Shown here in pieces: positions 1 to 20,027 of a stretch of DNA of 64,000 nucleotides; positions within the stretch are counted from its first letter, which is position 1, and each line of letters begins with the position of its first letter. Source of the stretch: Pseudomonas phage sp. 30-2. The notes below the pieces were generated by a model that was not told where the DNA came from, made no database searches, and worked only from the letters and a program-made list of their open reading frames with translations. The stretch lies in sequence record LC727697.1. The stretch is one strand, 5' to 3'. The translations under genes and the position numbers were made by a program.

Positions 1-56
1 ATAAGATTAATTTGCATTTACAACTAGGACATAAAAGGAAAGGGGCAGTTGCCCCT
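1..56 (-). repeat. Copy A of a 56-bp direct repeat, truncated at the window edge. It is identical to 585-640 and carries the palindromic motif half plus the GC-clamp hairpin (stem 41-56).
   Basis: Exact match of 1-56 to 585-640 read directly. Hairpin aggggc-agtt-gcccct. Confidence 0.8.
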
Positions 57-61
57 ATCTC

Positions 62-352
62 TTATTGTTTGGATAACTTCATTGTCAGCACTGCTACTTC
101 GAGGTCGTCTTTCATTACGCGCCAAAGACCGGTATGTGCCCAGACCACCCTACGTCCACTTACATACTCCATAATGGGACGTGCGAGCTGAGTAACAGTG
201 GTCATCTCTTCTTCAGTAGTATGACCCTTTAGTTTGAACGAAACTTCGATGTTCGGTTTCGTTATATGATTCACTGTGCGCTTACCGAGAACTTCGACAT
301 TAAACAGCGCTAGTTCTTTCTCGAAGCGCTTGTTCACAATCGACATATCCAT
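62..352 (-). CDS. hypothetical protein (96 aa)
   Basis: Minus-strand ORF. The stop sits 6 nt before the hairpin. ATG preceded by GGAGCAAGTAA. Confidence 0.55.
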   Translation of the reverse strand: MDMSIVNKRFEKELALFNVEVLGKRTVNHITKPNIEVSFKLKGHTTEEEMTTVTQLARPIMEYVSGRRVVWAHTGLWRVMKDDLEVAVLTMKLSKQ

Positions 353-366
353 TTACTTGCTCCAGG

Positions 367-504
367 CTAATGTGATGTGCGTCTTATCCTCGTACATGCT
401 AGCAGAGCAAGCATCGGGCTTGCAACCGAGTTCTTCGAACATACGCTGTAGGCGAACTTGGCACTGACATGCTCGAACTGTGCCTTTAGGTACTTGCGCT
501 TCAT
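367..504 (-). CDS. small hypothetical protein (45 aa, MKRKYLKAQFEH...)
   Basis: Hand-translated. Its stop is 12 nt upstream of the next ATG, whose RBS GGAG lies inside it. Below the ORF-track size cutoff. Confidence 0.35.
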   Translation of the reverse strand: MKRKYLKAQFEHVSAKFAYSVCSKNSVASPMLALLACTRIRRTSH

Positions 505-573
505 AGCAATTACTCCGTATAGCTACATATATGCTAACATCTTACCGCAGTAATGCAACAGGAGATTGACTTG

Positions 574-600
574 TGCAAATGCAAATAAGATTAATTTGCA
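574..600 (-). promoter_or_regulatory. near-palindromic intergenic motif TGCAAAT-GCAAATAAGATTAATTTGCA (arms TGCAAAT/ATTTGCA)
   Basis: Perfect 7-bp inverted arms with a 7-nt spacer. About 70 nt upstream of the next minus-strand gene. Recurs at least 14 times in the window. Confidence 0.6.
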
Positions 601-619
601 TTTACAACTAGGACATAAA

Positions 620-645
620 AGGAAAGGGGCAGTTGCCCCTTTCCT
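620..645 (-). terminator. GC-clamped hairpin followed by a T-tract on the minus strand (intrinsic terminator of 659-1114)
   Basis: aggaaaggggc-agtt-gcccctttcct, then TTTTAT in the minus sense. Confidence 0.65.
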
Positions 646-658
646 GTGTTAGCAGCGC

Positions 659-1114
659 TTACTTTTTGCTGCCGCCTTTGCTGCCGCCTTTGCGGGCGGG
701 CTTAGCTTCGGCTGCCGGGGTCTCCGGCGCATCCTCGGTCTGCGCCGCCGGGGCTTCTGCTTGCGCTTCTGCCGTTGCCTGGGCATCGGTCTGCGCCGCC
801 GGCGCGGGGAGGGGTTGCCCTTGTTCGCCGTTGCTAACGGAGTGCTTTACTGCATCCTCGAACGCCCGTGCAATGCGGATTGCACTGAACACGCCTTCCT
901 GTGCAAACTGCACCTCTACGCCGTTAACGGTAGCGTGCATGCTCGCGTTCCAGCTACGCTGGGTTTTTGTGCTGTAGAGCGGGAAAGCTTGCCCTACTAC
1001 TACCCCGTTAACTTTTAGGTCGAGCACACTTCCGACCTCCTTGTTAGCGGTGCGCACGATGCGCAGGGTGCCGATGTTCTCTACCGTTACAGCAGGGATG
1101 CTTACATTAGACAT
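659..1114 (-). CDS. GC-rich hypothetical protein with an Ala/Gln-rich linker and a C-terminal KGGSKGGSKK tail. Paralog of 18824-19528.
   Basis: About 65% GC ORF in a roughly 30% GC background. Shares the blocks VNGVVVGQ and VQF.QE.VFSAIRI with the 18824-19528 product. Confidence 0.7.
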   Translation of the reverse strand: MSNVSIPAVTVENIGTLRIVRTANKEVGSVLDLKVNGVVVGQAFPLYSTKTQRSWNASMHATVNGVEVQFAQEGVFSAIRIARAFEDAVKHSVSNGEQGQPLPAPAAQTDAQATAEAQAEAPAAQTEDAPETPAAEAKPARKGGSKGGSKK

Positions 1115-1496
1115 AGCTTGTACTCCGTTGTGTTGTTTATGTGTGTAGCTTACTAGGGATGCTACACTGTGTCTACTACTTTTTAAAAACTTTTATGCTT
1201 GCAAGCACATTGCTTGTTTGCATGTCTGTAGTGTGTAGGATTTCGCAGGTATTGTACAATTGTATATTTCTATTAAGACAGGCACGTTAATAGACGACGT
1301 CTTTTCTGCATTTTGCTATGTAAAGCTACAGGTGTGCGCATGCGCATGGGCCCTAAAACGCGCTACAAGCGCGCATAACAGCGTTTGTGCGCGTAGCTGT
1401 ACTAACGCATTGCTTAGCACTACTACGCAGCATACAGCGCTTACAGCGCTTTTAGCGGCATTGCAAATGTGAATTATTCTTATTCTATCTATTGTA

Positions 1497-1580
1497 GCAA
1501 ATAAGAATTAATCGCAATTACAAATAAGAATTATTTACATCACTAAATGCAAATAAGAATAATTATTATTTGTATTTGCA
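1497..1580 (-). promoter_or_regulatory. three degenerate tandem copies of the palindromic motif (gcaaataagaatta...)
   Basis: gcaaataagaattaatcgcaat, caaataagaattatttacat and gcaaataagaataattattatttgtatttgca, read directly. Confidence 0.5.
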
Positions 1581-1664
1581 ATGATAAAAGATAAAGAAAA
1601 AGATAAAGATAAAGAAAAAGATATTGAAAAAGAAAAAGATATTGATAATGAAAAAGAAACTAAA

Positions 1665-2009
1665 TTATTTCTTTCTTTTATAAATTATTGACTGAACGGT
1701 AATACAGAATATATAAGTCAAAACTGACATAAAATAATAACTTGTTATAAGAATGGTTATTATTAAACACGAAACAAATGTAGTTATATTGACTGGATTT
1801 TTCAATCCTATATAATATAAAGGAGTTATAAGTAAAAACAATAATAACGTCGTAAGGAACAACGAAATGGTTTGCATGAATATGTCGTGAATAAATGACA
1901 TTTTATCATATGAAAAATATATACATCCGACACTACAGCGAAATATATTAAAACCATTATACAATGGATAATGTCTTTTACTTATTATACTTTTATTATC
2001 AAACAACAT
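1665..2009 (-). CDS. hypothetical membrane protein (114 aa, strongly hydrophobic)
   Basis: ORF with multiple hydrophobic stretches. AT-rich, so confidence is moderate. Confidence 0.4.
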   Translation of the reverse strand: MLFDNKSIISKRHYPLYNGFNIFRCSVGCIYFSYDKMSFIHDIFMQTISLFLTTLLLFLLITPLYYIGLKNPVNITTFVSCLIITILITSYYFMSVLTYIFCITVQSIIYKRKK

Positions 2010-2416
2010 ATAGGTATTAAAGATAATCGTATAGGATAAAATAAATTGTATTTCTTAATACGTTTATGCGTATGTACATGCGTATGCAAACACATATAGC
2101 ACACTCATATTCGCATTTTATATTGCAATGCAAGGTTGAGATAAGAATCCAAAATTCAAATATAACTTTTGTAATATGATTTAGGAAATATATTTCATAG
2201 AATGGTTTTTGATATAAATGTAAGTAGCTAATTAGATATGATTATTGTATTTCATTTAAAAAGTGTCCAGTAAAATGTGCGACGAGGTGTTTCTAGTGAT
2301 ACATATCCTATAGAATATTTCGCTGTACTTAACCTTATTCTCTTATTGTTTAAAATTACTATGTATTCTGTCCATTTGCTAAGATAAAAAATTGATGACA
2401 TTTAACACCTACAATG

Positions 2417-2444
2417 AAAGGAAGGGGTTAAACCCCCTTCCTTT
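2417..2444 (-). terminator. GC-clamped hairpin aaaggaagggg-ttaaa-ccccttccttt
   Basis: Perfect stem. Immediately downstream of 2445-2672. Confidence 0.6.
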
Positions 2445-2672
2445 TTATTTAACTATTATCACTAATGCTATGAACACTATGCCCCATGCAATGTCTCCGT
2501 TAAATATAGCACCAATCCCGACAATGACCGAAAATACATCAATTAATGATCCTTTTCGTTCGGGCGACATAAATGCTGTGCATAGCAACAGTGCGATAAA
2601 ATACCAGATATTTCCAGTAACAATTGCAACAATAGAAGCTATGCATGCAACTATATTAGCAAGACCGCCCAT
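2445..2672 (-). CDS. small two-TM membrane protein (75 aa)
   Basis: Two hydrophobic helices. Stop abuts the hairpin. Confidence 0.5.
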   Translation of the reverse strand: MGGLANIVACIASIVAIVTGNIWYFIALLLCTAFMSPERKGSLIDVFSVIVGIGAIFNGDIAWGIVFIALVIIVK

Positions 2673-2673
2673 A

Positions 2674-3321
2674 TTATCCCCCTTGGGTCACGATGTATTC
2701 CCAATTAAGCCGGGTGACTCGACCGTCGACATTGCTGCGAATGCTCACTTGATCGTCGATTCCGCAGATGTTACCTTGTACATATTTCCATCGGGCAACA
2801 TCGTTGGGATACGAACGAAGGGGAACTACAGCCATAACTTCTTGCCCGAGATGATACCACCCGATGTCCAGATCGCTTTGCAAGCGGGCATATACGAGGC
2901 GAATCAATTCGGGACTAACAGACCATACCAAGTCTTTCTCTACATCCCACCACAAGACTGCCCCGCCGCGGATGGCCTTGCCGTCACTGAAGTAGTTACT
3001 GAATGAACAGAACTCGTCAGTAGTGTAGTCGAGGATCTCCCGACGATATTGTTCCCTGACCATCGAACCCGGTGCAAGGCACATACCATACACCGGAAAG
3101 TATCGGAAGAAGCAGCTCATGTTGCTTACTTGCAACGGCTGATCATCGTCATCGTAAACTTGAAACACCGTAGGGCTCGACTCGACTGAGCGGAAAGAAG
3201 AAACGAAGTTTTTAACACTCTCTTCGAATCCATCCAGCCGACCGGTGGTAGGACGCAACCATTTCAGCAGACCAGTGTTGTCCATGTCTACGTTTACGCT
3301 AAAAGAAAGATACTTAGACAT
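2674..3321 (-). CDS. hypothetical protein (about 215 aa, moderately GC-rich). Start chosen at MSKYLSFS.
   Basis: Long ORF at about 50% GC. AAGAG lies upstream of the internal ATG. The N-terminal 27 codons of the ORF-track call are doubtful. Confidence 0.5.
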   Translation of the reverse strand: MSKYLSFSVNVDMDNTGLLKWLRPTTGRLDGFEESVKNFVSSFRSVESSPTVFQVYDDDDQPLQVSNMSCFFRYFPVYGMCLAPGSMVREQYRREILDYTTDEFCSFSNYFSDGKAIRGGAVLWWDVEKDLVWSVSPELIRLVYARLQSDLDIGWYHLGQEVMAVVPLRSYPNDVARWKYVQGNICGIDDQVSIRSNVDGRVTRLNWEYIVTQGG

Positions 3322-3413
3322 AATATAATCTCTTATAAAAAGGTTATTTGGATCTGTTCTTGCTTTCGTGCATATTATTGCGCATATTGCTATATGCGTC
3401 AACAGGTATTTTA

Positions 3414-3866
3414 TTATAAAAATTTGTCAGTAAATGCCTTAGCAATAGAAGTACGAATGTTAATAGGTACCCATTCGCACATGAGCAAATCTACCATATT
3501 GCACGATCCTTCCATAGAGATAAGTTTTGTAGTTGTAATATCGTTATCAAAAAGATAGTGAAGATCTGGTTCTATATCGGAAATATTTACTTCTACCCCG
3601 CCCGAATTGATAAGAGTTAGCTGCAATGGCCTGTCAAAGAAAACACCTTCTGAACTAACTCTGTCTTTTATTTCATTAACGAATTCTACCAATTCGTCGT
3701 AGCCTGTGTAAAAGCTACAGAACCAAGTTCTACGTTCTATCTTCTCGAAATACAATTTTGCAGGAAGCTGCATAATTTCTTCGTAAACTTTTTCTACAAA
3801 ATTATCCGATGAAGTATCTACTTCAAACCGAATAAAAATATTACCATTCATTTTATGAAGTTTCAT
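3414..3866 (-). CDS. hypothetical protein (start at MKLHKMNGN)
   Basis: GAGG RBS 8 nt upstream of the internal ATG. Confidence 0.5.
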   Translation of the reverse strand: MKLHKMNGNIFIRFEVDTSSDNFVEKVYEEIMQLPAKLYFEKIERRTWFCSFYTGYDELVEFVNEIKDRVSSEGVFFDRPLQLTLINSGGVEVNISDIEPDLHYLFDNDITTTKLISMEGSCNMVDLLMCEWVPINIRTSIAKAFTDKFL

Positions 3867-3949
3867 TTTTACAACCTCGCATGTTGGTATCTTATATATT
3901 AAAACTATACATACTATTATGTGTGAATTCAAGCACTAAATTGTAACAA

Positions 3950-3970
3950 GTAAATAAGATTAATTTGCAC
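3950..3970 (-). promoter_or_regulatory. palindromic motif copy (gtaaataagattaatttgcac)
   Basis: Matches the motif consensus. Confidence 0.55.
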
Positions 3971-3986
3971 TTACACTTAACATTCA

Positions 3987-4015
3987 AAAGGAAAGGGGCT
4001 TAAATCCCCTTTCCT
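3987..4015 (-). terminator. GC-clamped hairpin aaaggaaagggg-cttaaat-cccctttcct
   Basis: Same hairpin family as 620-645. Downstream of 4046-4243. Confidence 0.6.
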
Positions 4016-4045
4016 AATAAATGTAGTTCACACCCAGTGGCGGCA

Positions 4046-4243
4046 TCAAACAGCATTGGTGATTGGAAGATCTGTATAATACTGAACAAGACGTTCAGTA
4101 TACATGTATTCCTGTAAATCTAAGCGAACTGCATTGTCTTTCAGTTCGCTATAGAAATGCTCACAGTTGAGTTGCTGCATTACATCAACCCATGCAGAAA
4201 GAATTTCTCTCGATGCATGTTCTACTCCGAGTGTGCTACGCAT
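4046..4243 (-). CDS. hypothetical protein (65 aa)
   Basis: ORF bounded by a cassette element. Confidence 0.4.
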   Translation of the reverse strand: MRSTLGVEHASREILSAWVDVMQQLNCEHFYSELKDNAVRLDLQEYMYTERLVQYYTDLPITNAV

Positions 4244-4316
4244 GATATAATCTCCTGCGTTGTTTTATGTACAACTACATAATAGCACATTTAGAGCTAT
4301 TGTAAAGCGGTTTCTG

Positions 4317-4532
4317 TTATAGCAACGACAGGTCTGTCGTGTTAATAGTCTTATATATTTCACTAAAATAAAGGATATCGTAGTAAGAACCGCGCTGGCC
4401 AGTAAACATATACGATGTCCCTTCATGAACAATAATAGAAGTATCCATGATCTCGGGGTTAATTTCGTTATCTACCGAAAATTCAGCGACAACACCATTG
4501 CTACGGTTTTGAAGAATGATTTTGTATTTCAT
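4317..4532 (-). CDS. hypothetical protein (71 aa)
   Basis: ORF in the minus-strand gene train. Confidence 0.4.
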   Translation of the reverse strand: MKYKIILQNRSNGVVAEFSVDNEINPEIMDTSIIVHEGTSYMFTGQRGSYYDILYFSEIYKTINTTDLSLL

Positions 4533-4814
4533 TTGCTTTTCCTCGTAGATAAAAGAGTACTTCTTTTCTGTTCAATGCATGATAAATGCACTATTGATAT
4601 AATATCTAGCAGTTGAAGTTTCTTATCAAAATTCTCAGCAAACTTAATCTTTAGACAAAGAATGAACTTCATCTTTGTTCTTTTGGTGCTATATGCTTAC
4701 ATTTTTATTATAAACTATTATAGCATGATTGTATTTTATATAAACAGAAAGTTTGTAACAGGTTCTGCAAATTCTAATTATTTGCGATTGCATATATCAA
4801 AAAATATAGAACTA

Positions 4815-5156
4815 TTATTTTTGTTCAAAGTATACCCAAACATATGCAAACTCGGGAGCTCGCATGATATGTGCTATAACTTTCTCTTTATTACAATTAT
4901 TTAATTCATCTACTTGTTTTTTCAATTGTTGAACAGCTTTAAATATTTGTTCCTTATTCTGAGTATAAGTACACTCAAAAAAGAATCCATCATTTAACTT
5001 TCCATCGTTATCAATAAAAGCAAGACCTACCATATCTTCGCCGACAACTATAAATTTGTCAGTGACAGGAATATTGTCTAGATCGGAAATTGTAGTAACT
5101 TCGTTGAGTTTCATAATTTCTCTTTTTACTACGAATATGTAAATATTATCTATCAA
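4815..5156 (-). CDS. hypothetical protein (113 aa)
   Basis: ORF. Overlaps the next gene by 11 nt. Confidence 0.45.
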   Translation of the reverse strand: MIDNIYIFVVKREIMKLNEVTTISDLDNIPVTDKFIVVGEDMVGLAFIDNDGKLNDGFFFECTYTQNKEQIFKAVQQLKKQVDELNNCNKEKVIAHIMRAPEFAYVWVYFEQK

Positions 5157-5340
5157 TAATATTGTCTACTTCAGACAATGCACGCATCATATCTATTACA
5201 GACCCAATTCCTGTTACAGTTACAACTAAGGCCATAAATACTATTATAGCAGCAGGTCCCAAGCCGTATTTGATAAAGATAGCATTAATTAATACTGCAA
5301 ACATAGACGGGACCAAAGCAAACAGATGTGCAAGATACAT
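5146..5340 (-). CDS. small membrane protein (64 aa)
   Basis: Two hydrophobic segments. Confidence 0.4.
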   Translation of the reverse strand: MYLAHLFALVPSMFAVLINAIFIKYGLGPAAIIVFMALVVTVTGIGSVIDMMRALSEVDNIIDR

Positions 5341-5350
5341 TACTACTTCC

Positions 5351-5554
5351 TTAGTACATAATGTATTTTTCTAGAATGATAAGCTCGGCAGTTGCATTAT
5401 CTTCTTCATAATATAGATTTGGCTGAGGCATATCACCCTGTTCGGAAAATTCGTTAATAAATGCTTGTCCTAGACGGAGTGGCTGACCGGATTTATTAGT
5501 GCTATAATAGTTTGCCTTCCATTTGGCAAAATCGCACATAGATAGTTTCTTCAT
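5351..5554 (-). CDS. hypothetical protein (67 aa)
   Basis: ORF. Confidence 0.4.
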   Translation of the reverse strand: MKKLSMCDFAKWKANYYSTNKSGQPLRLGQAFINEFSEQGDMPQPNLYYEEDNATAELIILEKYIMY

Positions 5555-5569
5555 AATATCCCCTGAATA

Positions 5570-5776
5570 TTATTTGTATTGTTGAACAGAATAATCATGC
5601 CACATTTGATGTCCTCGAATCCATTCGTTACGTTCATACGGCTCATTTTTGGTATACGGGCAGTCTGTATATTTCTGCCCTAGTTTAGCTGCATGAACAC
5701 CTTCGCTAAACGGAGAAAAAGATGCACGCTCGCACAGAAATTCATCTACCAGCATGTCTGTTGTTTTGTTACTCAT
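5570..5776 (-). CDS. hypothetical protein (68 aa)
   Basis: ORF. Overlaps the next gene by 8 nt. Confidence 0.4.
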   Translation of the reverse strand: MSNKTTDMLVDEFLCERASFSPFSEGVHAAKLGQKYTDCPYTKNEPYERNEWIRGHQMWHDYSVQQYK

Positions 5777-6095
5777 TATACACCTCTTGTTTTTGTTGTG
5801 TAGTTTCGCACGGTGTTTCTTTTTTATCAGATAGTGCTGCGTTACCTGCTAATCCCATTCCTACCAAACACAATACTGCCGCAACTACCAGCCCCCAGCT
5901 GGGACCAGTATTATATTTGTGCTTTTGGATATCCATTAACACATTTTCACATACAGCATACGGATCATCTCCACCGCATGCTATGCAATTACAGTATACG
6001 CTCATTTTATTTCGACCCCTCTGAGAATTGTTTGTATTTCTAATTTCTCTTCTTCTACTTCGGGTGTTGGTATAGCATATACAATTACTTGGCAA
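5769..6095 (-). CDS. hypothetical Cys-rich protein with a C-proximal TM segment
   Basis: CNCIACGG motif followed by a hydrophobic stretch. Confidence 0.4.
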   Translation of the reverse strand: MPSNCICYTNTRSRRREIRNTNNSQRGRNKMSVYCNCIACGGDDPYAVCENVLMDIQKHKYNTGPSWGLVVAAVLCLVGMGLAGNAALSDKKETPCETTQQKQEVYNE

Positions 6096-6277
6096 TTTTC
6101 ATTTCTTGGCAATTCTGCTTCGCAAGACTTTACAAGTTCTTTATACTGCATATATAACGAAGCAGACTCAGAATTCGACGCTAGGCTGTATCCTATCAGA
6201 ATGCCAGTTACAAAAAAACATATAGAAGAAATTATTAGTATTCTTTTAGCTCTGTGTGTATCAACATATTCATTCAC
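6002..6277 (-). CDS. hypothetical protein with an N-terminal TM segment (91 aa)
   Basis: ORF. Hydrophobic N-terminus. Confidence 0.4.
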   Translation of the reverse strand: MNEYVDTHRAKRILIISSICFFVTGILIGYSLASNSESASLYMQYKELVKSCEAELPRNENCQVIVYAIPTPEVEEEKLEIQTILRGVEIK

Positions 6278-6516
6278 AGAACTTCTCCTAGCTTACAGTC
6301 TACTGCCTCTTCAAATTCAGCATAAGACATTTGCTGGTTATCGAAATAAATAACGTCATGAACGGCATCATAAATGTAAGTATAAATGTTGCCGAAATAT
6401 TTAATCTGCACAGAATTTAAAAGTTTCTTTTTCAGCGACATAACTGCTACTCCTGCGGATTTATGAGTTAAATGTACTATGTTAACAAGCTACAGTCAAC
6501 TGGTATTTTTCTTAAA

Positions 6517-6538
6517 TTGCAAATAAGATTAATTCGCG
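6517..6538 (-). promoter_or_regulatory. palindromic motif copy (ttgcaaataagattaattcgcg)
   Basis: Matches consensus. Followed at 6555-6585 by an imperfect hairpin plus T-run. Confidence 0.5.
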
Positions 6539-6776
6539 TTTGCTAGTTAGCAGCCGCAAAAAAATCCCATCTAAGGGATCCTTTTGCCCAAAAACATTCG
6601 ATTCAGACATCTGTCTTTTAAACGAATCGAAGCGGTGTTTCGGCATTCATAATTATCATCATCATAATGTATATTTAATGCTGCGGCGGCATACTCTTCA
6701 CCTCCAGGAAGCATATAATAGTTTTAGGTTAATGATTCCTACTAGCACTAAGGCATATGCCAGTAGACCGTTTTAA

Positions 6777-7010
6777 GACCTGCTACAAAGCGGGGTAAAG
6801 CATAGATACATACAGTGTACCTTTGTAGCTGTCCCGCCTGTAGCAGCAAGGTCTAGCAGTGTCCAGGGGCAGGTACGTCATTGACCGATTTCCGATTTAA
6901 GGAAAGGTATGCTGCGCCTTCCACGTTACTAGACCTTGTACACCTGTTTGCCGCAGCCCGCGAACATCGCGGGCGGGCTGCTTGCGGGACGGTGTCTCCC
7001 GTTTAGTGTT
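6777..7010 (-). ncRNA. candidate structured non-coding RNA or leader (GC-rich, multiple nested stems, no ORF)
   Basis: About 58% GC island with no ORF. Complementary segments tgctacaaag/ctttgtagc, caaggtctag/ctagaccttg, cagcccgcg..cgcgggctg and cggga..tcccg. Orientation is uncertain. Confidence 0.35.
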
Positions 7011-7295
7011 GCTTACAATGCGTTATGCTGTATTGCTTTGTGTGTTTATAATACGTAAAACTATGCATGCTGTAAACTGAATTTTAAAACTTTTTGTGAT
7101 CTATTTTGTAACGCATGCAATGAAAATGAAGAATATTACATTGAAAAATATATAACTATTACAGACAAAATCTAATCTTTCCTTATAAAAAGTATAATCT
7201 TTATACAGTATCTGTTTATGCATTTTTATAGTTAATATATTAAAATATATCGATACTATTATAGATACAAATGCCTAAATACTTAAATAAAGCAT

Positions 7296-7484
7296 TCATT
7301 TCATCTCAACAAAGGCAAGTGCAAATATCATAAACGATATAACACATAGAATTACTCCGCCTATGCTGAAAATATAACTACCTACTAACCCTCCTAGCAT
7401 TAATCCTATTGTAGGATTATCTACCATAAATACGCCTAGTAACAGAACAATGATACCTATTACACTTGAAAGAGCTTTTTTCAT
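7296..7484 (-). CDS. small membrane protein (62 aa)
   Basis: Two hydrophobic helices. Confidence 0.45.
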   Translation of the reverse strand: MKKALSSVIGIIVLLLGVFMVDNPTIGLMLGGLVGSYIFSIGGVILCVISFMIFALAFVEMK

Positions 7485-7771
7485 AACCGAATTCCTTTAA
7501 TCGGGACAGATACTACTATGCATACACTGTCTTCTGCATTACATGCAAACATGTATTTCTTTTGTCCGTCATGCATTACACATTCGAACATTCCGTTAAC
7601 AGCATTATTGCAATTAACTTTCCCTGTTAATCCAAACTCTTCGTTTAGATATGTTTCTAGATCCTGTTCCATAATGAGGGTGCTCACATCTTTATTTGCA
7701 GAATCTGCTGCATAAGTATGAGCTATTACTGTGAGACCCAAAAATGCAACGAGACACAGTGTATTTTTCAT
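7481..7771 (-). CDS. secreted/periplasmic small protein (start at MKNTLCLVAFLGLTVIAHTYA, signal-peptide-like)
   Basis: Classic n-h-c signal peptide ending AHTYA-AD. Four Cys in the mature part. Confidence 0.5.
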   Translation of the reverse strand: MKNTLCLVAFLGLTVIAHTYAADSANKDVSTLIMEQDLETYLNEEFGLTGKVNCNNAVNGMFECVMHDGQKKYMFACNAEDSVCIVVSVPIKGIRL

Positions 7772-7943
7772 TGTTGTATCTCCATAATAAATGTTTTTGT
7801 ATAGTTGATTGTTGCGTATGTTTAATATAACACCAACAAATGCATTGCACAATATGCAATTATAAGCTATATAACGCGCTTTTTAACGTTAGCAATATGT
7901 ATGTATTAGCTATGCAAATTTATGCGTTATAAAGCATCTTCGG

Positions 7944-7964
7944 TGCAAATGCGAATTATTTACG
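7944..7964 (-). promoter_or_regulatory. palindromic motif copy (tgcaaatgcgaattatttacg)
   Basis: Degenerate match. Confidence 0.45.
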
Positions 7965-7980
7965 TTTATAAAAGAAAAAT

Positions 7981-8004
7981 AAAGGGGGATAATTCCCCCT
8001 TTAT
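7981..8004 (-). terminator. GC-clamped hairpin aaaggggg-ataatt-ccccctttat
   Basis: Perfect stem plus T-run. Downstream of 8007-8363. Confidence 0.6.
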
Positions 8005-8006
8005 TT

Positions 8007-8363
8007 TCAAACGTTAGCTTCGTACCATTCGAAAGAAGATTTAATTTGTTCTACTTCGTTTGAAGTAATTGTTCTCGGAGTAAGAAATTCTTCATACGAA
8101 GACGGTTTAATTTCATTTACGTCGTCTTCTGATTTCAAACCGAGATACTCGCCTGTTTGAATAGAATAAACATGATACATTTGTTTGCCTTGCTTAATTC
8201 CTGCTCGATGCCCGCGGACTACCGAATCAACTACAACGCCATTAGCAGTTGAAATAGGAGTGATAACATTGAGTCGAACAACAATACGGGTATTATGCAT
8301 TTTAATACATTCCTTTCCAAAAATCGTCTTCATCTTGATATGTATCGTATTCATATATGTCAC
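8007..8363 (-). CDS. hypothetical protein (118 aa)
   Basis: ORF. Confidence 0.4.
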   Translation of the reverse strand: MTYMNTIHIKMKTIFGKECIKMHNTRIVVRLNVITPISTANGVVVDSVVRGHRAGIKQGKQMYHVYSIQTGEYLGLKSEDDVNEIKPSSYEEFLTPRTITSNEVEQIKSSFEWYEANV

Positions 8364-8577
8364 GTTGTTTCTTTTTGCGTTTTCTTAATACTTCTTCTCT
8401 AATAGATTTTACATAACCTACTCTACCCGGAGTTTCGTACACATAACAGCGTTTTATCTGAACCCTTATAGGAATTAAATCCATATAATGGTATACTGCC
8501 CAGATATATTTAAAATCATAACCTTTTATAATTATTTTTCTTATAGGTGCTTCTTCGTGCGGAACATCACCGATCAT
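8302..8577 (-). CDS. hypothetical protein (91 aa)
   Basis: ORF. Overlaps its neighbour. Confidence 0.35.
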   Translation of the reverse strand: MIGDVPHEEAPIRKIIIKGYDFKYIWAVYHYMDLIPIRVQIKRCYVYETPGRVGYVKSIREEVLRKRKKKQRDIYEYDTYQDEDDFWKGMY

Positions 8578-8614
8578 TAGGATAGGGTAATCTGTATATG
8601 CTTCTATTTACTTC

Positions 8615-8851
8615 TTACCTATCGTCAACTACTTTGCGATTATTTGTTTCTGCCCATTCGTATATGCCTGTAAGTTCCTTACAGTTTTCGCACGAAAAAT
8701 ATACTACATTTAATGGATCATCTGCACATACTTTTGGTATTTTTATGTTTATAAGAGTGCTACCACATTTTGCACAGATGATATGTAATTTATTTGCCAT
8801 AGCTATTAATTTATCGCTTTGTTTAACAGCATTGTGCATATAGTAACACAT
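8615..8851 (-). CDS. small zinc-ribbon-like protein (CAKCG...CENC)
   Basis: Two CxxC pairs about 30 aa apart. Confidence 0.45.
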   Translation of the reverse strand: MCYYMHNAVKQSDKLIAMANKLHIICAKCGSTLINIKIPKVCADDPLNVVYFSCENCKELTGIYEWAETNNRKVVDDR

Positions 8852-8886
8852 GTAATATTTAATTCAATAGAAAATATTATTACATA

Positions 8887-8912
8887 GCAAATGCAAATTA
8901 ATCTTGTTTAAC
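8887..8912 (+). promoter_or_regulatory. palindromic motif copy in flipped orientation (gcaaatgcaaattaatcttgtttaac)
   Basis: Central spacer AATTAATCTT instead of AAGATTAATT. Confidence 0.45.
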
Positions 8913-8923
8913 TTGTAACATAC

Positions 8924-8955
8924 AAAAGAAGCAGGAATAATTCCTGCTTCTTTTT
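8924..8955 (-). terminator. hairpin aaaagaagcagg-aataatt-cctgcttctttt
   Basis: Perfect stem flanked by A/T runs, so bidirectional. Confidence 0.6.
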
Positions 8956-8956
8956 C

Positions 8957-9289
8957 TCAGCTCAGTTCTTCTATTCGATTTGCTCTACGTAGAGCTTCGA
9001 CGAGAATTGATTGCATAAGAGGTGAATCAGTGTAATCTGCAATAACTTCGTAATCACTATTGCAATAAATGCAATACACATGACCTACCTTCACTTTCTC
9101 TGCATTATAAATACAGAATGTATCACTGTCGGTAGACATGATAGAATTCATAATATCTTTTACAGAAGTACTCTTCTCGATCGCCCAATCACCCCCTTCG
9201 TAAACGGAAACTGAATAACCCCGGGCAATTGCATGAGTAACAAAACCACGTACAATATAACGCATATTTCTTACACTGATAGTATTCAT
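8957..9289 (-). CDS. hypothetical protein (110 aa)
   Basis: ORF ending at the hairpin. Confidence 0.45.
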   Translation of the reverse strand: MNTISVRNMRYIVRGFVTHAIARGYSVSVYEGGDWAIEKSTSVKDIMNSIMSTDSDTFCIYNAEKVKVGHVYCIYCNSDYEVIADYTDSPLMQSILVEALRRANRIEELS

Positions 9290-9316
9290 TGCCGTTCTCC
9301 TGTGTAGAGAGAATTA

Positions 9317-9718
9317 CTAATTAGCGTTCCAGCAAGTGTCAAACACAAGCAAATCTGTTAGTAGTTTCCACTCCGCTGCGGCAAGGTATGCCGAATGTTT
9401 TTCTACAAATTCGGGACTATGTAACGAAACTGACCAGCCGTTGCCGCGAATATACACCCGTTCTTTACTCCGGGCTACCTTGCCGTCTTTACGCATTGCA
9501 TCCTTGTGATGCGGATGCCCGGCAGTGCTAGACCACTGTACTGCCATTTGATGCAGTGCTACTTCGAAAAGTTCTGCATCTGACATGTTTATGTCCAGAT
9601 CCGGCACTTCAGCATCATATATGTTTGTCCCTACATAAAACTTTGCGTAACTTTTCATGACAGACAATCCTTTATGTTTTAGTTCTGTTATTAAACTTCT
9701 ATAAACACATAATAGCAA
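9317..9718 (-). CDS. hypothetical protein (133 aa)
   Basis: ORF with moderately raised GC. Confidence 0.45.
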   Translation of the reverse strand: MLLCVYRSLITELKHKGLSVMKSYAKFYVGTNIYDAEVPDLDINMSDAELFEVALHQMAVQWSSTAGHPHHKDAMRKDGKVARSKERVYIRGNGWSVSLHSPEFVEKHSAYLAAAEWKLLTDLLVFDTCWNAN

Positions 9719-9817
9719 AACTACTATGTATTGTAACTCAAAAATTTGTAACAGAGATCCTATCTAAGTTTTCCATCTCATATCCATGTTTAGAAGTCGT
9801 TTCTATTATACAAGATA

Positions 9818-9850
9818 GCAAATGCAAATAAGATTAATTAGTGTTTGCAA
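9818..9850 (-). promoter_or_regulatory. palindromic motif copy (gcaaatgcaaataagattaattagtgtttgcaa)
   Basis: Matches consensus. Confidence 0.5.
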
Positions 9851-10228
9851 TTTAACAACTGTGTTACTAATATATTCTTTTATAGATATATTGCAAATGT
9901 TAGTATGTTACTCCTACCCAAAAGTAGCCTACTCGCAGGTAGCAGTGATGGCCGTCATAATATATCGGCTTACACCAAATAAAAGGTTCATTGGGTTTGC
10001 TACCCCAAGTCGGATCCCATCCTATATTCCAATCACCATAACGCACAGCCCAATATATATGTTTTAAGATATTCATTTATTTTTGCCTCTATCATAATAG
10101 CTAGTTGATATTTTTGTAGTTATCATAAGATAATTACTACTTAGCATCAAAGACAAAGTAGTCATGCCTTCTTTATTGTCACTTAATACAGGAATAAAGA
10201 ACTGGAATTAATTATTCTTTATTTTTTG

Positions 10229-10282
10229 CAGTATTGATGCTGATACAAGAAACTGTAATAGTCTATATCAGCATCAATACTG
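10229..10282. repeat. perfect 17-bp inverted repeat cagtattgatgctgata / tatcagcatcaatactg with a 20-nt spacer
   Basis: Read directly. Not followed by a U-run on either strand. Confidence 0.6.
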
Positions 10283-10287
10283 ATAAT

Positions 10288-10518
10288 TTACTCTGTAGAC
10301 GTAGAAACTAGTGCTTGAACATTAATCGAGAAATTGCTATACATTTGATTAGTAAATTTCTCGAAATCATCTGATTCGACGAATTTTGCCATTGCAGCCA
10401 AAAAAGCTTTCTTTTTATCACTTTCGGGATCATCAGTAGGATGGGCATATTCACTGATAGCTTCGTTTTGGCCATGGATACCGATGTTAAAGACATATCC
10501 GTTATATTTGAGGCTCAT
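10288..10518 (-). CDS. hypothetical protein (76 aa)
   Basis: ORF. Confidence 0.45.
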   Translation of the reverse strand: MSLKYNGYVFNIGIHGQNEAISEYAHPTDDPESDKKKAFLAAMAKFVESDDFEKFTNQMYSNFSINVQALVSTSTE

Positions 10519-10601
10519 TTATGCTGCTCCTTCTGGTAGGATCATAATGATAATTCTCTCGCTTTACTTCAATTATTTCTTTGCATTCTTATAAAGCTGA
10601 T

Positions 10602-10829
10602 TTATTGTTTCCCAGTCGGGTTGTTCGTAGATGTCATATGGGTGAGCTCCGATTCAACAGCCTGTAGTGCTGCTCGCATTCTGGCATTCTCTGCCTTTAG
10701 CTGTTCCAGCTCAGCTATAAGACTGAGAATTTCTTGTGGCTTTGCTGATGCTATTAACGCCACATAGCTATCAAATTTACAATCGAGAGCCTGTTCCGCT
10801 AGCTTCTTCATTTTGTTGATGTCAATCAT
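10602..10829 (-). CDS. Ea22/Ead-like N-terminal-type small protein (coiled coil)
   Basis: MKKLAEQAL start and an LEQLKAEN heptads region resemble the N-terminal part of lambdoid Ea22-like proteins. About 50% GC. Confidence 0.45.
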   Translation of the reverse strand: MIDINKMKKLAEQALDCKFDSYVALIASAKPQEILSLIAELEQLKAENARMRAALQAVESELTHMTSTNNPTGKQ

Positions 10830-10853
10830 TTGGTGGCTCCTTTGAGGATTTCG

Positions 10854-11168
10854 TTAAGATCGCAGCATCTCGGCGAGTTGATCGACAGTCTCTCGCAGCG
10901 CCTCGTTCTCCGCCTTGAGTTTGTCGATCTCGTCTAGCAAGTCGAGGACGGCTCGGGGGTTGGCGGCAGCACAGAAAGTGGCGTTAGCCTTGTCCTGCTC
11001 CAAATCGCTGTAAAAGCCTTCGTTACCGATCACGACTTCGCCATTGTCCGCTCGGATTACAGGAAACAGATTCGACCATGCAATGTCATCGCCTTCCTCC
11101 CAAGTTGCATACCACGGACCCGGCGTAGCCAGTTTTGCTAGCTTTTTTATTTTGTTGGTGTCGGTCAT
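10854..11168 (-). CDS. Ea22/Ead-like family protein
   Basis: KKLAKLATPGPW plus ...AAANPRAVLDLLDEIDKLKAENEALR, the characteristic PGPW signature. About 55% GC. Confidence 0.6.
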   Translation of the reverse strand: MTDTNKIKKLAKLATPGPWYATWEEGDDIAWSNLFPVIRADNGEVVIGNEGFYSDLEQDKANATFCAAANPRAVLDLLDEIDKLKAENEALRETVDQLAEMLRS

Positions 11169-11356
11169 GGAATCATCTCCGCCATTTCGGTAATAGCCTT
11201 TGCTAGGGCAAGGGCGTGTTCACAGTTACGGGCGCTTTTGCGAAGTGGAGTGCTGACGATGCGCATGTTAGTCACCCAAAATGTAAGCGATTAGGCAGGC
11301 GTAAATGGCCAGTCCAGGATGGCCAGAGAAGGCAAGGACTAGAGCGATTACCCAGA

Positions 11357-11623
11357 TCATGCGATCTCCTCCTTCGCCTGCAGTGTCATGTTGAGGTTAT
11401 ATTGCTTAGCGCAGGAGCAAAGGCGGCGAAGTTCATCGTTCTCGTCCGCCATGTGAAAAAATTCGATGTTGTAGTTGTTCAGCTTCAACTTACCGCTGCT
11501 GAATTTGGCAGATACGCGATGGCCTTGCGTGTGCAGGCTAAGGCCAAGATAGCGGAGTATCGACCTGTGGTCGGTTGGGATAGGTTCGTTCTTTGTGTTG
11601 ACGACAAACAAATTGATGGTCAT
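11357..11623 (-). CDS. hypothetical protein (88 aa)
   Basis: ORF fills the gap, ending 4 nt from the next gene. Confidence 0.4.
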   Translation of the reverse strand: MTINLFVVNTKNEPIPTDHRSILRYLGLSLHTQGHRVSAKFSSGKLKLNNYNIEFFHMADENDELRRLCSCAKQYNLNMTLQAKEEIA

Positions 11624-11626
11624 GCT

Positions 11627-12028
11627 TCACCCGAAGTCATACGCTTTCAGAACGCCATGTTTATCGTAGCCGACTTGACCACAATCTATGCTGCCTACCC
11701 AATCAGGAAAGTTTGCATGGGTGTTGTTCTTCCAATCCACTTCAACCAAACGCTCTTGCATGACGCAAATGAAGCCTCCGATTTCTAGCCAGCGTCCGCG
11801 CGCCAAGTAGCTGCCGGAACAGCTACCTTCCCAATCGTTGCACCGCTCACCCCTGTCATTAATCGGGAACTTCAGGACGTAATGCTTAGATAGAAAGCAT
11901 GCCCGTGTGATACCAATCTTCGGCTCACCGTACTTGGCAAACAACCGATTCAGTTGTTGCTGGGCAAGTTCATTGCGGTGCTGGGCGATGAAACCGCCAA
12001 ACAGCAATTTGTCCAACACAATGTTCAT
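11627..12028 (-). CDS. hypothetical protein (133 aa, GC-rich island)
   Basis: ORF at about 52% GC. Confidence 0.5.
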   Translation of the reverse strand: MNIVLDKLLFGGFIAQHRNELAQQQLNRLFAKYGEPKIGITRACFLSKHYVLKFPINDRGERCNDWEGSCSGSYLARGRWLEIGGFICVMQERLVEVDWKNNTHANFPDWVGSIDCGQVGYDKHGVLKAYDFG

Positions 12029-12052
12029 TCTGCGTGTCCTACGTGGAGACCA

Positions 12053-12487
12053 TTACAGATCCCGGATAGCTTCGGCGTTTTTTTCAAACCACTTGACTAG
12101 CTTTTGCATAGCTTCGGCTGGTGTCTTGCCCTTGATCTTGCGGAACTTGATCACTTCCGAACGATAGGGGATAGACCACGTTAGCAGCTCAATTTCGACC
12201 GGCGAACCTTCTGGCAATACATTCCCGCGATTGTCACACAAATTCATCATAAAGCGCATGTAACCGCTCGCATTCATCAGAATGCTGTTCGGGGCTTCGG
12301 AAGCGCAACCGACATTCGCAAACGAAATTGTCATCGACGGACCAAGGTTATCGGAAACCGACGCGGCGGCGATGTAATTCGGAAAAATCTTAGCCATGGA
12401 AGTTTTGAAGTCTTCGGCGGCTTGCTTGGTGTTTTCTACGATCATTTTTGAATCTCCGGGGCTGTTAGTCATGGCTTGTCTCCCCAT
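12053..12487 (-). CDS. hypothetical protein (up to 144 aa; start uncertain)
   Basis: ORF at about 50% GC. Confidence 0.45.
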   Translation of the reverse strand: MGRQAMTNSPGDSKMIVENTKQAAEDFKTSMAKIFPNYIAAASVSDNLGPSMTISFANVGCASEAPNSILMNASGYMRFMMNLCDNRGNVLPEGSPVEIELLTWSIPYRSEVIKFRKIKGKTPAEAMQKLVKWFEKNAEAIRDL

Positions 12488-12735
12488 TTCACTTCAAGCC
12501 ACAGGTCAACAGACTGGCGTCCTTCGGCATGCACCGCACAGTCGAAGCCGAGACTACGCAACACTTTGAGGATCGCTTCGCTGCGCCGCGAGGTGCCGAT
12601 GCCGAACCCATAGGCGCGGGTAGTGTACACGTACTTTCCTTCTGCGGCTGCTTTGGCGATGTCGTTGAGGATGGCATCGACATCGTCTTTCGCTCGCGCT
12701 ATGTCACGGGCTTGCTCAGCGGTCAGTCTGCTCAT
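12469..12735 (-). CDS. hypothetical protein (88 aa, start MSRLTAEQARDIARAK)
   Basis: ATGA overlap with the upstream gene. About 58% GC. Confidence 0.5.
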   Translation of the reverse strand: MSRLTAEQARDIARAKDDVDAILNDIAKAAAEGKYVYTTRAYGFGIGTSRRSEAILKVLRSLGFDCAVHAEGRQSVDLWLEVKWGDKP

Positions 12736-13055
12736 TTCACTGCCTCGATACCGGCTTCTTGGAGGGCTTCTTCCTGCGCCTTGAGCATTGCTTCGTAGGC
12801 TGGGAGGCATAGACCTCCTATGTAGTTTGTATCTGGGCAGACCACGGCGTCGTAGGTATCTTCCAACCAAGACGGGCACTGCCGCGGCATCGGGACGTAA
12901 TCCTTCATCAGTGCCACACGACTGGCTTTCCAGGCCTCGTAGCGTGCCTGAACATGCGGGTTGAGGTACAAGTCGTCGACTGCATTGTACGCAAGCGGTG
13001 CCGAAGAACGAGTCCGAACCCACGATTCAAATTCTTTTTTCATGTTAGGCTCCAT
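12732..13055 (-). CDS. hypothetical protein (107 aa)
   Basis: About 55% GC ORF. Translationally coupled to the downstream gene. Confidence 0.5.
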   Translation of the reverse strand: MEPNMKKEFESWVRTRSSAPLAYNAVDDLYLNPHVQARYEAWKASRVALMKDYVPMPRQCPSWLEDTYDAVVCPDTNYIGGLCLPAYEAMLKAQEEALQEAGIEAVK

Positions 13056-13083
13056 TAAATCAAAACGTTATGTGTTACTTCTA

Positions 13084-13719: not shown

Positions 13720-13770
13720 CTACATGTAATGTAGCACTTCAAAATAGAAAACACAATAGGATTAAATTTG

Positions 13771-13796
13771 TGCAAATAAGATTAATTAGTATTTGC
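13771..13796 (-). promoter_or_regulatory. palindromic motif copy (tgcaaataagattaattagtatttgc)
   Basis: Matches consensus. Confidence 0.55.
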
Positions 13797-13809
13797 TAAT
13801 ATAGATCCA

Positions 13810-13837
13810 AAAAGAAAGGGAATTATAATTCCCTTTC
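13810..13837 (-). terminator. GC-clamped hairpin aaagaaaggg-aattataatt-ccctttct
   Basis: Same family. Downstream of 13848-14396. Confidence 0.6.
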
Positions 13838-13847
13838 TAAATATGCA

Positions 13848-15147: not shown

Positions 15148-15188
15148 GTTTAGTTTTTATCTTCATATTCATTACGATAAAACTAAAC
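15148..15188. repeat. 13-14-bp inverted repeat gtttagtttttatc / gataaaactaaac
   Basis: Read directly. Confidence 0.55.
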
Positions 15189-15214
15189 AATAATTAATTC
15201 TTATTTGTAATTAT
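15189..15214 (+). promoter_or_regulatory. motif-like copy in plus orientation (aataattaattcttatttgtaattat)
   Basis: AATTAAT-CTTATTTG core, as in the flipped 8887 copy. Confidence 0.4.
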
Positions 15215-15445
15215 ATTGCTTTTGCTCTTGCTCTTAGCGGTAAGGGTGAAGGCCCTTAGATGCTGTGCAAAGCACAGCAGAAGCGTCCATTTCCAAGTAG
15301 GTTCAGGAAATTATATTCTCCCGTAATTACGGGAGAATATAAAACCCATATGCCAATATAGGACGAGGGCATAAGTACTCAAAACCATTTCGTAATATGG
15401 ACGAGGCGGGGACCTTTTTCCTCAGATTACATCATTCTCTCATTG
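15215..15445 (+). ncRNA. candidate plus-strand structured ncRNA in a 0.9-kb ORF-free gap
   Basis: Hairpins aaggg-tgaa-ggccctt, ctgtgc-aaa-gcacag and tctcccg-taatta-cgggaga. Duplicated ataggacgagggc / atatggacgaggcgggg. No ORF of 60 aa or more. Confidence 0.3.
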
Positions 15446-17908: not shown

Positions 17909-18184
17909 ATTTTCTATATTTAGAACCTTCTATATAGAAACTAACAAGTATAATTAGATTGTCATCTCGCACTTGTATACATTTTGAGAACCGTCGCCCG
18001 AACAAATTGTCTATAGTATTAGTTTTGTACTGTAAGAGAGGTATATTAATCATTAATGCAAAATAAGTAACACACAAATTTTAATACATGTAAGATGTAT
18101 TGCACACTGTATTTTAAAATATCAATTGCACTGTTATATAATATATTAACAGCAAATACTTTTAATAGCAACTGATTGTTTATA

Positions 18185-18217
18185 TGCAATTACAAATAAG
18201 AGTAATTTGCAATTGCA
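18185..18217 (-). promoter_or_regulatory. palindromic motif copy (tgcaattacaaataagagtaatttgcaattgca)
   Basis: Matches consensus. Confidence 0.5.
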
Positions 18218-18523
18218 ACTCATACAATAAGAAAATGAATTAGATAATAAATGATACCTTAGTAATATTGAAAGAATATGTAGGCCAAATAGAAGTAGAA
18301 TTATTAATCTTAATATCTATCATATGTATACCATAAGCTTTATGATATAGTATATTAGATAGACCGTTTGATATAAAGAATATATTCATATTAATACTTT
18401 TTTATAAAAGTAATGCAAGTATTGTCTAATATAGGAACTGTCGGAATAATTATCATTAAAGAAAACGCAGGTGTGTTTACTTCTAGATAGTAGTCATATG
18501 TAAAATTATTGACTGTTATATAG

Positions 18524-19528: not shown

Positions 19529-19900
19529 GTTGTATACCTCTGTAGCTGATGGAAGGATTATGTTGTTTACTTACTACACTTTCGGGGCACTTACCCCTTA
19601 AGCTTGTATACAGTGTAGAGCCTAGTTTGCATTGCGTCAAGCATTTTTTGTTTACTTTCTGCGTTGCTTACTATGTAGCGCTCTACACACTGCGTCTACA
19701 GTTCGCACTTTAAGGTCGTAGTAATGGAAAGTCAAGCATTTTTTAAAATATTTTTAAATTATTTTTTACCATCTTGTATACGCGCGCGAGCTATATATAG
19801 CAAGGTCAATCAGTATGGTGTAGAATTATAATTTATAAACAAATCAACTACTTATCTACTATCCATTTCCAAGTATGCTACCAATCCATATACTGGGCAG

Positions 19901-20027
19901 TGCAAATGCAAATAAGATTAATTATTATTTGCATATTCTTTTTCGTTGCAAATGCAAATACGAATTAGTCTTATTTACAATAACAAATGAAATTACAAAC
20001 GCAAATAAGAATTAGTCTTATTTGCAA
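19901..20027 (-). promoter_or_regulatory. cluster of three palindromic motif copies interleaved with direct repeats
   Basis: tgcaaatgcaaataagattaattattatttgca, ttgcaaatgcaaatacgaattagtcttatttacaa and gcaaataagaattagtcttatttgcaa. Confidence 0.55.

Follow-up and report, generated by a model that had tools for sequence, protein, structure and literature searches.

A recurrent terminator, palindromic box and promoter cassette in the early region of a Wroclawvirus jumbo phage: a candidate operator and probable PeSL-like module exchange

Introduction

What is the role of a short palindromic sequence that recurs between genes, often next to a terminator hairpin, in the DNA of Pseudomonas phage sp. 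30-2? The stretch analysed here, which we refer to as the window, comprises 64,000 nucleotides of sequence record LC727697.1. An earlier reading of its letters (the original prediction) had singled out an element at positions 574-645, in which a GC-clamped hairpin adjoins the motif TGCAAAT-N7-ATTTGCA, as one of at least 14 intergenic copies, and had compared it with the promoter-plus-stem-loop cassettes (PeSLs) of T4-type phages. We present evidence suggesting that the element is a composite cassette of the early region in which a terminator, a 27-bp box that is a candidate operator and a downstream σ70-type promoter are combined, and that gene modules are exchanged at its copies in the manner of PeSLs; we put the probability of this reading at roughly 0.6.

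The first 20 kb of the window are ~97% identical to ten Wroclawvirus jumbo phages of Pseudomonas, among them PA5oct, Cassandra, Paride and MIJ3, and the record taxonomy is Arenbergviridae, genus Wroclawvirus. PA5oct is being advanced both as a model among jumbo phages and as a therapy candidate, and its relative Paride kills dormant cells and replicates on them. Relative to the PA5oct record the window is reverse-complemented, and its genes therefore lie on the minus strand; positions 1-20,000 correspond to PA5oct 28.5-8.7 kb, within a 39-kb direct terminal repeat. The terminal-repeat genes gp34-gp105 of PA5oct are highly transcribed early genes by RNA sequencing (RNA-seq), early transcription proceeds almost only from one strand and needs the host RNA polymerase, and 32 putative TTGAC/TATAATA promoters and 36 terminators, the latter obtained with ARNold, are given in the main text of the study concerned (Lood et al. 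2020, PMC7318152).

Results

The box recurs at gene boundaries of the early region

A search for TGCAAAT-N7-ATTTGCA that allowed up to two mismatches returned 10 matches, against 1.1 ± 1.07 in shuffled sequences, and none of 100 shuffles reached 10. We then scored the window with a 35-nt position weight matrix (PWM) built from 11 copies, using a cut-off of at least 14 bits; 15 sites were found on the minus (transcribed) strand, all of them at 573-20027 and none at 20-64 kb. With flipped and weak copies included, the window holds 17-18 copies at 13 loci, all within 1-20,027, and every copy originally listed is present at, or a few bases from, the position given for it. The two copies said to be flipped are indeed so (the well-preserved one at 8885-8919 and a degenerate one at 15185-15219), and 12 of 14 copies point the same way. 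The original prediction had also proposed that a genome-wide motif search and a test for association with gene boundaries would be informative, and both speak in its favour: all 13 loci in the window are intergenic in a region with 74% open reading frame (ORF) content (binomial P = 2e-8), and across the entire PA5oct genome (286,783 bp) the 24 plus-strand PWM sites of at least 14 bits are confined to 8.6-35.5 kb, compared with 0-3 sites in shuffles. The box-bearing interval of PA5oct, gp37-gp101, is thus nearly the same as the RNA-seq early block gp34-gp105. A lone strong outlier at PA5oct 66,213 lies inside a coding ORF and was judged to be due to chance.

Multiple copies of the box appear to be a feature of the genus. 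When the 35-mer was compared by blastn with 50,697 phage records, multiple copies were found only in the 10 Wroclawvirus records, at 13-17 places in each. A scan of IMG/VR with AATTMWTCTTATTTGCA for distant relatives returned 73 contigs, none with more than a single match, as chance would produce. The box is not described in the main texts on PA5oct or MIJ3, the MIJ3 paper makes no mention of promoters or repeats, and searching the literature for the literal sequence returned unrelated primers only.

The box is a sharply bounded dyad

The box is a 27-bp near-palindrome, TGCAAATAAGAAT-N-ATTCTTATTTGCA. Across 20 PA5oct loci its core reads TGCAAAT(A/G)(C/A)N-AAT-(T/A)-A(T/A)T-CTTATTTGCA, with the arms spaced by N13, and the window copies, read along transcription, align as TTGCAAAT..AATTAATCTTATTTGCATTTGCA. 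The perfect 7-bp arms around N7 that had been reported apply to the copy at 580-600 alone; the consensus of the 20 PA5oct loci is the N13-spaced dyad. Many boxes carry additional TGCAAA/TTTGCA hexamers spaced in 6-bp steps, and in the copy at 573-607 such extra hexamers create overlapping dyads. The outer 7 and inner 3 positions of the dyad are symmetric, with the right (downstream) arm being the better conserved. Information content is ~0.8-1.8 bits at most of positions 2-28, lower at columns 9-11, 15 and 17, and no higher than 0.4 bit in the flanks on both sides (at most 0.3 bit in the downstream columns, for the same 20 loci); there is therefore no -35/-10 in fixed register with the box.

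Several known kinds of site were compared with the box and set aside. As a σ70 promoter it would offer TTGCAA followed by TAATCT after only 8 nt, with no suitable spacing and no -35 conservation upstream of the box; as a σ54 -24/-12 element it has no GG 10-11 nt before GC; and it does not fit the consensus sequences of PvdS, FNR, IHF, Fis or ArgR sites. We also considered whether the palindrome acts as RNA or as a single strand, that is, as an RNase III or RNase E site, as structure in a 5' untranslated region or as an N4-type extruded hairpin promoter, for which the inverted arms and the location between cistrons could be cited. This appears highly improbable. In most copies the arms are imperfect as well as AU-rich, and inner arm positions 9-11 and 19-21 are non-complementary in most, indicating that pairing in a DNA or RNA hairpin is not maintained. 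Given the predicted promoters described below, the box would be transcribed only by terminator read-through; a search of the window against Rfam returned tRNAs only, with no family matching the cassette region; and PA5oct uses the host RNA polymerase and has no phage polymerase annotated.

Terminators precede the box and imperfect promoters follow it

At 7 of the 13 loci a strong hairpin with a U-run (ΔG -15 to -25 kcal/mol, z-score -3.2 to -6.5) lies 5-15 nt upstream of the box. The recurrent intergenic order originally described, in which a gene stop is followed by a terminator hairpin, the palindromic box and the next gene, is thus borne out, but two of its particulars are less general than supposed. 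The hairpin with its T-run is absent from other loci (none is seen when the sequence upstream of boxes 9816 and 18184 is folded, and the cluster at 1461-1595 also lacks one), and the distance to the next gene, put at 40-90 nt, extends from ~46 to ~372 nt when measured from box to start codon, with a roughly estimated median of ~80-100.

The best σ70 PWM score within 110 nt downstream of boxes has a median of 6.1, compared with 4.8 in random windows (Mann-Whitney P = 1.7e-4), and 9 of 23 σ70-like sites start 9-20 nt after the box (P = 0.004). These predicted promoters would put the centre of the dyad at about -64 to -76. Their core elements are imperfect (TTGCAT, TTGAAT and TTGCTA, within a pattern TTGnnn-16/17-TAnnnT), and canonical TTGAC-N17-TATAAT promoters are mostly found elsewhere in the genome. 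We note that two canonical promoters in the leader of a gp38-like gene (19735-19707 and 19640-19612, minus strand), 170-290 nt downstream of the triple box array, share an upstream AAAAAATGC-TTGAC.

The strong orientation bias, the better conservation of the promoter-proximal arm and the imperfection of the adjoining core promoters, with canonical ones mostly elsewhere, might be taken to mean that the box is read by RNA polymerase or by a polymerase-bound factor. We think this unlikely, and it would in any case have to account for the well-preserved flipped copy, which still faces a correctly oriented promoter. An UP-like element would be misplaced, as the AT-rich centre of the box would fall between about -58 and -71, further upstream than the zone usual for UP elements (-38 to -59), and it would leave the conserved G/C positions and the dyad unexplained. 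Alternatively, the downstream arm TTATTTGCA could serve, at a subset of promoters, as a MotA-box-like substitute for the -35 through sigma appropriation. Like the MotA-box middle promoters of T4, the loci have a TGC box (TTTGCA here, TGCTT in T4) upstream of a -10-like hexamer, and PmSL variants of PeSLs with Mot boxes are known in phage nt-1 (PMC4122927). The spacing is shared only by a minority: TAnnnT follows TTTGCA at 12 ± 1 nt in 4-5 of ~16 loci (three of these being TATAA(T/C)), with ~1.8 expected by chance. No downstream column exceeds 0.3 bit, however, so that most copies lack a -10 at a fixed distance (11-13 nt); the box, moreover, is a dyad, and the PA5oct annotation includes no homolog of MotA or AsiA.

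Cassette repeats flank modules that differ between sister genomes

The copies at 1-56 and 585-640 are identical over 56 bp, as had been reported, but the repeat is in reality at least 113 nt long (531-643) and is cut by the start of the window; in Cassandra the counterpart of 1-56 continues to 113 nt. It starts at the hairpin, includes the box and stops 2-3 nt beyond the predicted -10 of TTGCAT-16-TAG(C/T)AT, and the repeated unit therefore consists of terminator, box and predicted promoter. PA5oct is without window 57-640, whereas this 584-bp module is present in the window and in Cassandra between two direct repeats. Among five genomes compared, Cassandra also has an 83-nt cassette repeat (100% identity) around an 877-bp module and a 40-nt repeat (95% identity) around a 425-bp module, and Callisto has a 60-nt repeat (96.7% identity) around a 1.6-kb module, making four modules with direct cassette repeats of 40-113 nt at their flanks. 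The presence or absence of such modules among sister phages is as would be expected if homologous recombination between cassette copies adds and removes them, and the proposed likeness to T4-type PeSLs holds in that sister genomes differ by modules lying between direct cassette repeats.

By a hand count of breakpoints, 5-6 of ~12 insertion or deletion events between sister genomes have an end no more than 100 nt from a box. The modules between cassettes range from 29 to 53% GC, and the earlier suggestion that the cassettes bracket GC-rich islands is correct insofar as cassettes do delimit GC-rich modules; it does not extend to every exchange, since the largest GC-rich replacement (window about 10.5-13.0 kb) has breakpoints 700-1900 nt from any box. 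The ORFs of the box region are short, and hardly any of them matches a Pfam family. An Ead/Ea22-like protein encoded in a GC-rich module (10854-11168, minus strand) is 63% identical to proteins of unrelated virulent Pseudomonas myoviruses of the PAK_P5/KPP10 type and 35-39% identical to those of temperate D3/PMG1; the same allele is present only in Cassandra, and the PA5oct version is 46% identical, a distribution that points clearly to horizontal exchange among Pseudomonas phages. The first gene behind the cassette at 13764-13838 (13132-13689, minus strand) encodes a homolog of PA5oct gp52 (anti-END1), for which inhibition of END nucleases has been shown by experiment and which is shared with Pbunavirus 14-1 (2025 preprint, PMC12191111).

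Another possibility is that the box has no regulatory role of its own and is the core of a selfish or recombination-prone repeat. Such a repeat, either MITE-like (resembling a miniature inverted-repeat transposable element) or targeted by a phage recombinase or a homing endonuclease, would spread through duplication and gene conversion and be intergenic because insertions are tolerated there. Several cassettes are homologous beyond the box, with stems of the form AAAGGGG...CCCCTTT, similar spacers and repeats of 56-113 nt, but most copies share only the 27-bp core between unrelated flanks, and their conservation is position-specific and roughly symmetric, unlike that of decaying repeats. The orientation bias is consistent with common descent, orthologous boxes show no excess conservation and the genome encodes many homing endonucleases; the copies, however, are limited to the early transcription region and are not found in intergenic DNA at large, and they occur with and without hairpins as well as in clusters of three. 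A box of this kind seems to us distinctly improbable.

Feature coordinates and neighbouring features

Table 1. Boxes, hairpins, predicted promoters and associated features of the window (coordinates from the first letter of the window; ΔG in kcal/mol).
Feature	Position	Strand	Details
Palindromic box, copy first noted	573..607	-	35-nt block, 27-bp dyad core, PWM 43.4 bits; minus-strand sequence TTGTAAATGCAAATTAATCTTATTTGCATTTGCAC
Exact TGCAAAT-N7-ATTTGCA	580-600		within box 573..607
Intrinsic terminator hairpin with U-run	620..645	-	ends gene 659-1114(-); 11-bp stem, ΔG -21.6, z -3.9
Predicted σ70-type promoter TTGCAT-16-TAGCAT	531..558	-	read from sequence; 14 nt downstream of box
45-aa ORF	ATG at 504	-	after promoter 531..558
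Second cassette copy, box (1-29) cut by window edge	1..56	-	hairpin 41-56; distal direct repeat of 584-bp module
DNA between repeat copies of 584-bp module	57..584	-	ORFs 367-504, 62-352; blastn against PA5oct, Cassandra
Cluster of 3-4 overlapping or adjacent boxes, no hairpin	1461..1595	-	PWM 1523, 1546, 1575, 1581 (minus), 1461 (plus)
Context of cluster 1461..1595			18-nt tandem repeats 1587-1657 before (Tandem Repeats Finder, TRF); 345-nt leader and GC-rich gene 659-1114 after
Box 3942-3976 and terminator hairpin ~3988-4015	3942..4015	-	ΔG -24.7, z -6.5
Predicted promoter TTGAAT-17-TATAGT	3904-3932	-	after box 3942-3976
Weak box, absent from original list	4759..4793	-	15.6 bits; 1 mismatch to N7 pattern
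Box 6511-6545 and hairpin 6556-6587	6511..6587	-	hairpin ~ 3' end of PA5oct ncRNA002 equivalent
Predicted promoter TTGACT-17-TACATT	6471-6499	-	after box 6511-6545
Box 7937-7971 and hairpin 7975-8008	7937..8008	-	ΔG -21.1
Flipped box 8885-8919	8885..8954	+	asymmetric centre inverted relative to transcription; hairpin 8924-8954 on minus strand
Promoter-like TTGAAT-16-TACTAT	8840-8867	-	correctly oriented beside flipped box 8885-8919
Box without hairpin	9816..9850	-	41.3 bits; upstream does not fold, z -0.6
Box 13764-13798 and hairpin 13813-13838	13764..13838	-	directly upstream of PA5oct gp52 homolog
Degenerate flipped copy	15185..15219	+	<14 bits; sequence read
Box without hairpin	18184..18218	-	36.1 bits
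Predicted promoter TTGCTA-17-TAATAT	18143-18171	-	after box 18184..18218
Three tandem boxes, centres 46-47 bp apart	19900..20027	-	37.3-38.3 bits each; TRF period 47
Context of triple array 19900..20027			12/42-nt tandem repeats before; 370-nt leader with two TTGAC promoters and gp38-like gene after

Both multi-box clusters are adjoined on their transcriptionally upstream side by purine-rich tandem repeats (18-nt units, 3.9 copies, at 1587-1657; 12/42-nt units at 20026-20141). PA5oct annotates doubtful coding sequences over these repeats, namely gp85 ('cell division protein FtsH') and gp37 ('extensin-like'). The equivalents of two abundant early PA5oct transcripts that lack ORFs, the non-coding RNAs ncRNA002 and ncRNA001, lie at 6590-7050 and about 20200-20430 (both minus strand); the former has its apparent start at a promoter (7076-7048) that is without a box, and its apparent end at the hairpin of the cassette at 6511-6587.

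Further along the window, 12 tRNA genes are clustered at 43803-48027 (minus strand), and a 276-nt tandem duplication (27812-28385; 2.1 copies, 86% identity) spans the small ORFs 27842-28108 and 28115-28384. An array of 21-46-nt tandem repeats resembling TCACTCATTAGTTGTACACTATAGCTA at 28676-29166 coincides with the start of the PA5oct record, the left end of the terminal repeat, and may be connected with the terminus or with packaging; in the Paride record the corresponding stretch carries the label 'CRISPR'. For a 68-aa early ORF (5570-5776, minus strand), Pfam gave a match to ribosome modulation factor RMF that falls short of the threshold (24.7 bits; cut-off 27.9), an intriguing hit given that Paride, a close relative, replicates on dormant cells.

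Discussion

In the reading that we favour, an intrinsic terminator would close the upstream unit and host RNA polymerase would start at an imperfect σ70-type promoter, typically 9-20 nt after the box, that serves the next short unit of accessory or anti-defence ORFs. The box would be the operator at which a sequence-specific DNA-binding protein, most probably one encoded by the phage, binds as a dimer or multimer. This protein might either boost weak early promoters as soon as the DNA is injected or silence them when early expression gives way to middle expression. Since the box is centred ~64-76 bp upstream of the predicted starts of ~20 units, such a protein would co-regulate the whole early gene set. 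An operator plausibly accounts for the dyad consensus, the sharp 27-bp edges, the lack of a -35/-10 in fixed register and the flipped copy that faces a correctly oriented promoter, and just as plausibly for the restriction to one temporal class, the clustered triple sites and the variable distance to the promoter.

Several observations weigh against this interpretation. The orientation bias (12 of 14 copies) and the better conserved downstream arm would not be predicted for a purely symmetric operator. Orthologous boxes diverge by 2.6%, compared with 2.5-3.7% for their flanks (five genomes, P = 0.55), and thus give no signal of purifying selection. The promoters are consensus matches in AT-rich DNA, where a plain σ70 scan finds no enrichment (85 found, 77 expected). 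Early transcription also occurs without a box: the ncRNA002 equivalent has a plain promoter (TTTACA-17-TATTAT), and genome-wide PWM scanning places no box of 10 bits or more at the early gene gp450. About half of the insertions and deletions between sister genomes break far from any box. Lastly, the original prediction had proposed a search for a phage-encoded helix-turn-helix (HTH) protein that matches the site; a Pfam search of ~150 window ORFs (39 early and 110 further ones) disclosed no HTH, ribbon-helix-helix or other DNA-binding domain. Taking together the orientation bias, the stronger downstream arm and the lack of a binding protein among these ORFs, some probability must be left for a directional, promoter-linked role of the box.

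What might the regulator be? PA5oct gp99, which carries the PHROGs label 'DNA binding protein', was rejected, being a weak match to Pyr_excise. A different lead is provided by three GC-rich paralogs, found in the window at 18824-19528 and 659-1114 (both minus strand) and in PA5oct at 33964-34425, and corresponding to PA5oct gp38, gp86 and gp98, of which gp38 is a virion protein. They share a beta-rich domain of ~70 aa with charged or Ala-rich tails, and each of their genes directly follows box copies; for two of the genes these copies are the only triple arrays, and the leaders measure 345-370 nt. They have no homologs outside the genus, and because their predicted fold has no convincing match the family is only a lead. 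It is tentatively possible that the box is the operator of an unrecognised global early regulator, for which the gp38 family is a weak candidate, and that the boxes double as portable recombination joints. If so, a small phage protein without a detectable DNA-binding domain, delivered with the DNA or made first, would turn ~20 weak promoters on or off together, as a single regulon of an AT-rich genome in a GC-rich host, and anti-defence genes would move with their regulation attached.

The cassette has much in common with the PeSLs of T4-like phages (Arbiol et al. 2010, PMC2839356; Comeau et al. 2014, PMC4122927). It shares with them the order of stem-loop, AT-rich stretch, a σ70-like -35/N17/-10 (here predicted), Shine-Dalgarno sequence and ATG, as well as the A3-4G3-loop-C3T3-4 style of hairpin seen in phage nt-1; the copies are likewise concentrated in a hyperplastic region of small ORFans and lie at the flanks of insertions, deletions and replacements between very close relatives, and the hairpin-less loci parallel 'half' PeSLs (PMC4122927). 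Unlike PeSLs, however, the cassette belongs to a member of the Arenbergviridae and not of the T4 subfamily, and would therefore work like a PeSL outside the described set; the likeness is drawn from sequence, whereas PeSLs are known for excising the DNA between them as minicircles. The cassette differs further in having a sharply bounded 27-bp dyad in place of a merely AT-rich stretch, in that the dyad also occurs without a hairpin and in triple arrays, and in core promoters that are weaker and not in fixed register with the box. Comparative evidence suggests that the cassette behaves as a PeSL-like terminator/promoter family in a non-T4 jumbo phage, mediating the gain and loss of modules. The 27-bp box is the new part, previously undescribed, and probably marks an early regulon.

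Phage P1 has many C1 operators scattered over its genome, and the OL and OR operators of lambdoid phages come in triplets. The arrangement here is similar in that a short dyad site stands beside many promoters of one temporal class and forms triple clusters, but the sites lie upstream of the predicted promoters (~-64 to -76) instead of overlapping them, and the phage is virulent. The omega protein of pSM19035 is a ribbon-helix-helix repressor with heptad-repeat operators; these resemble the boxes in being built from short units (TGCAAA at 6-bp steps here) that are direct and inverted, variable in number and upstream of promoters, although here the units flank a conserved centre of 9-13 bp, a feature that heptad arrays lack.

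The question addressed by these findings is how the first 30 kb of transcription is timed in this group of phages. An operator role of the box would define a regulon of ~20 early units at once, one of which carries the proven anti-defence gene gp52/anti-END1, and the 35-mer could then serve as bait for the regulator. Independently of the operator reading, the cassette-flanked insertions and deletions would extend PeSL modular shuffling beyond T4-like phages, and the cassettes may be useful as insertion sites for engineering. Exchange at the cassettes may thus account for the trading of accessory and counter-defence genes between Pseudomonas phages without loss of the genes' own promoter and terminator.

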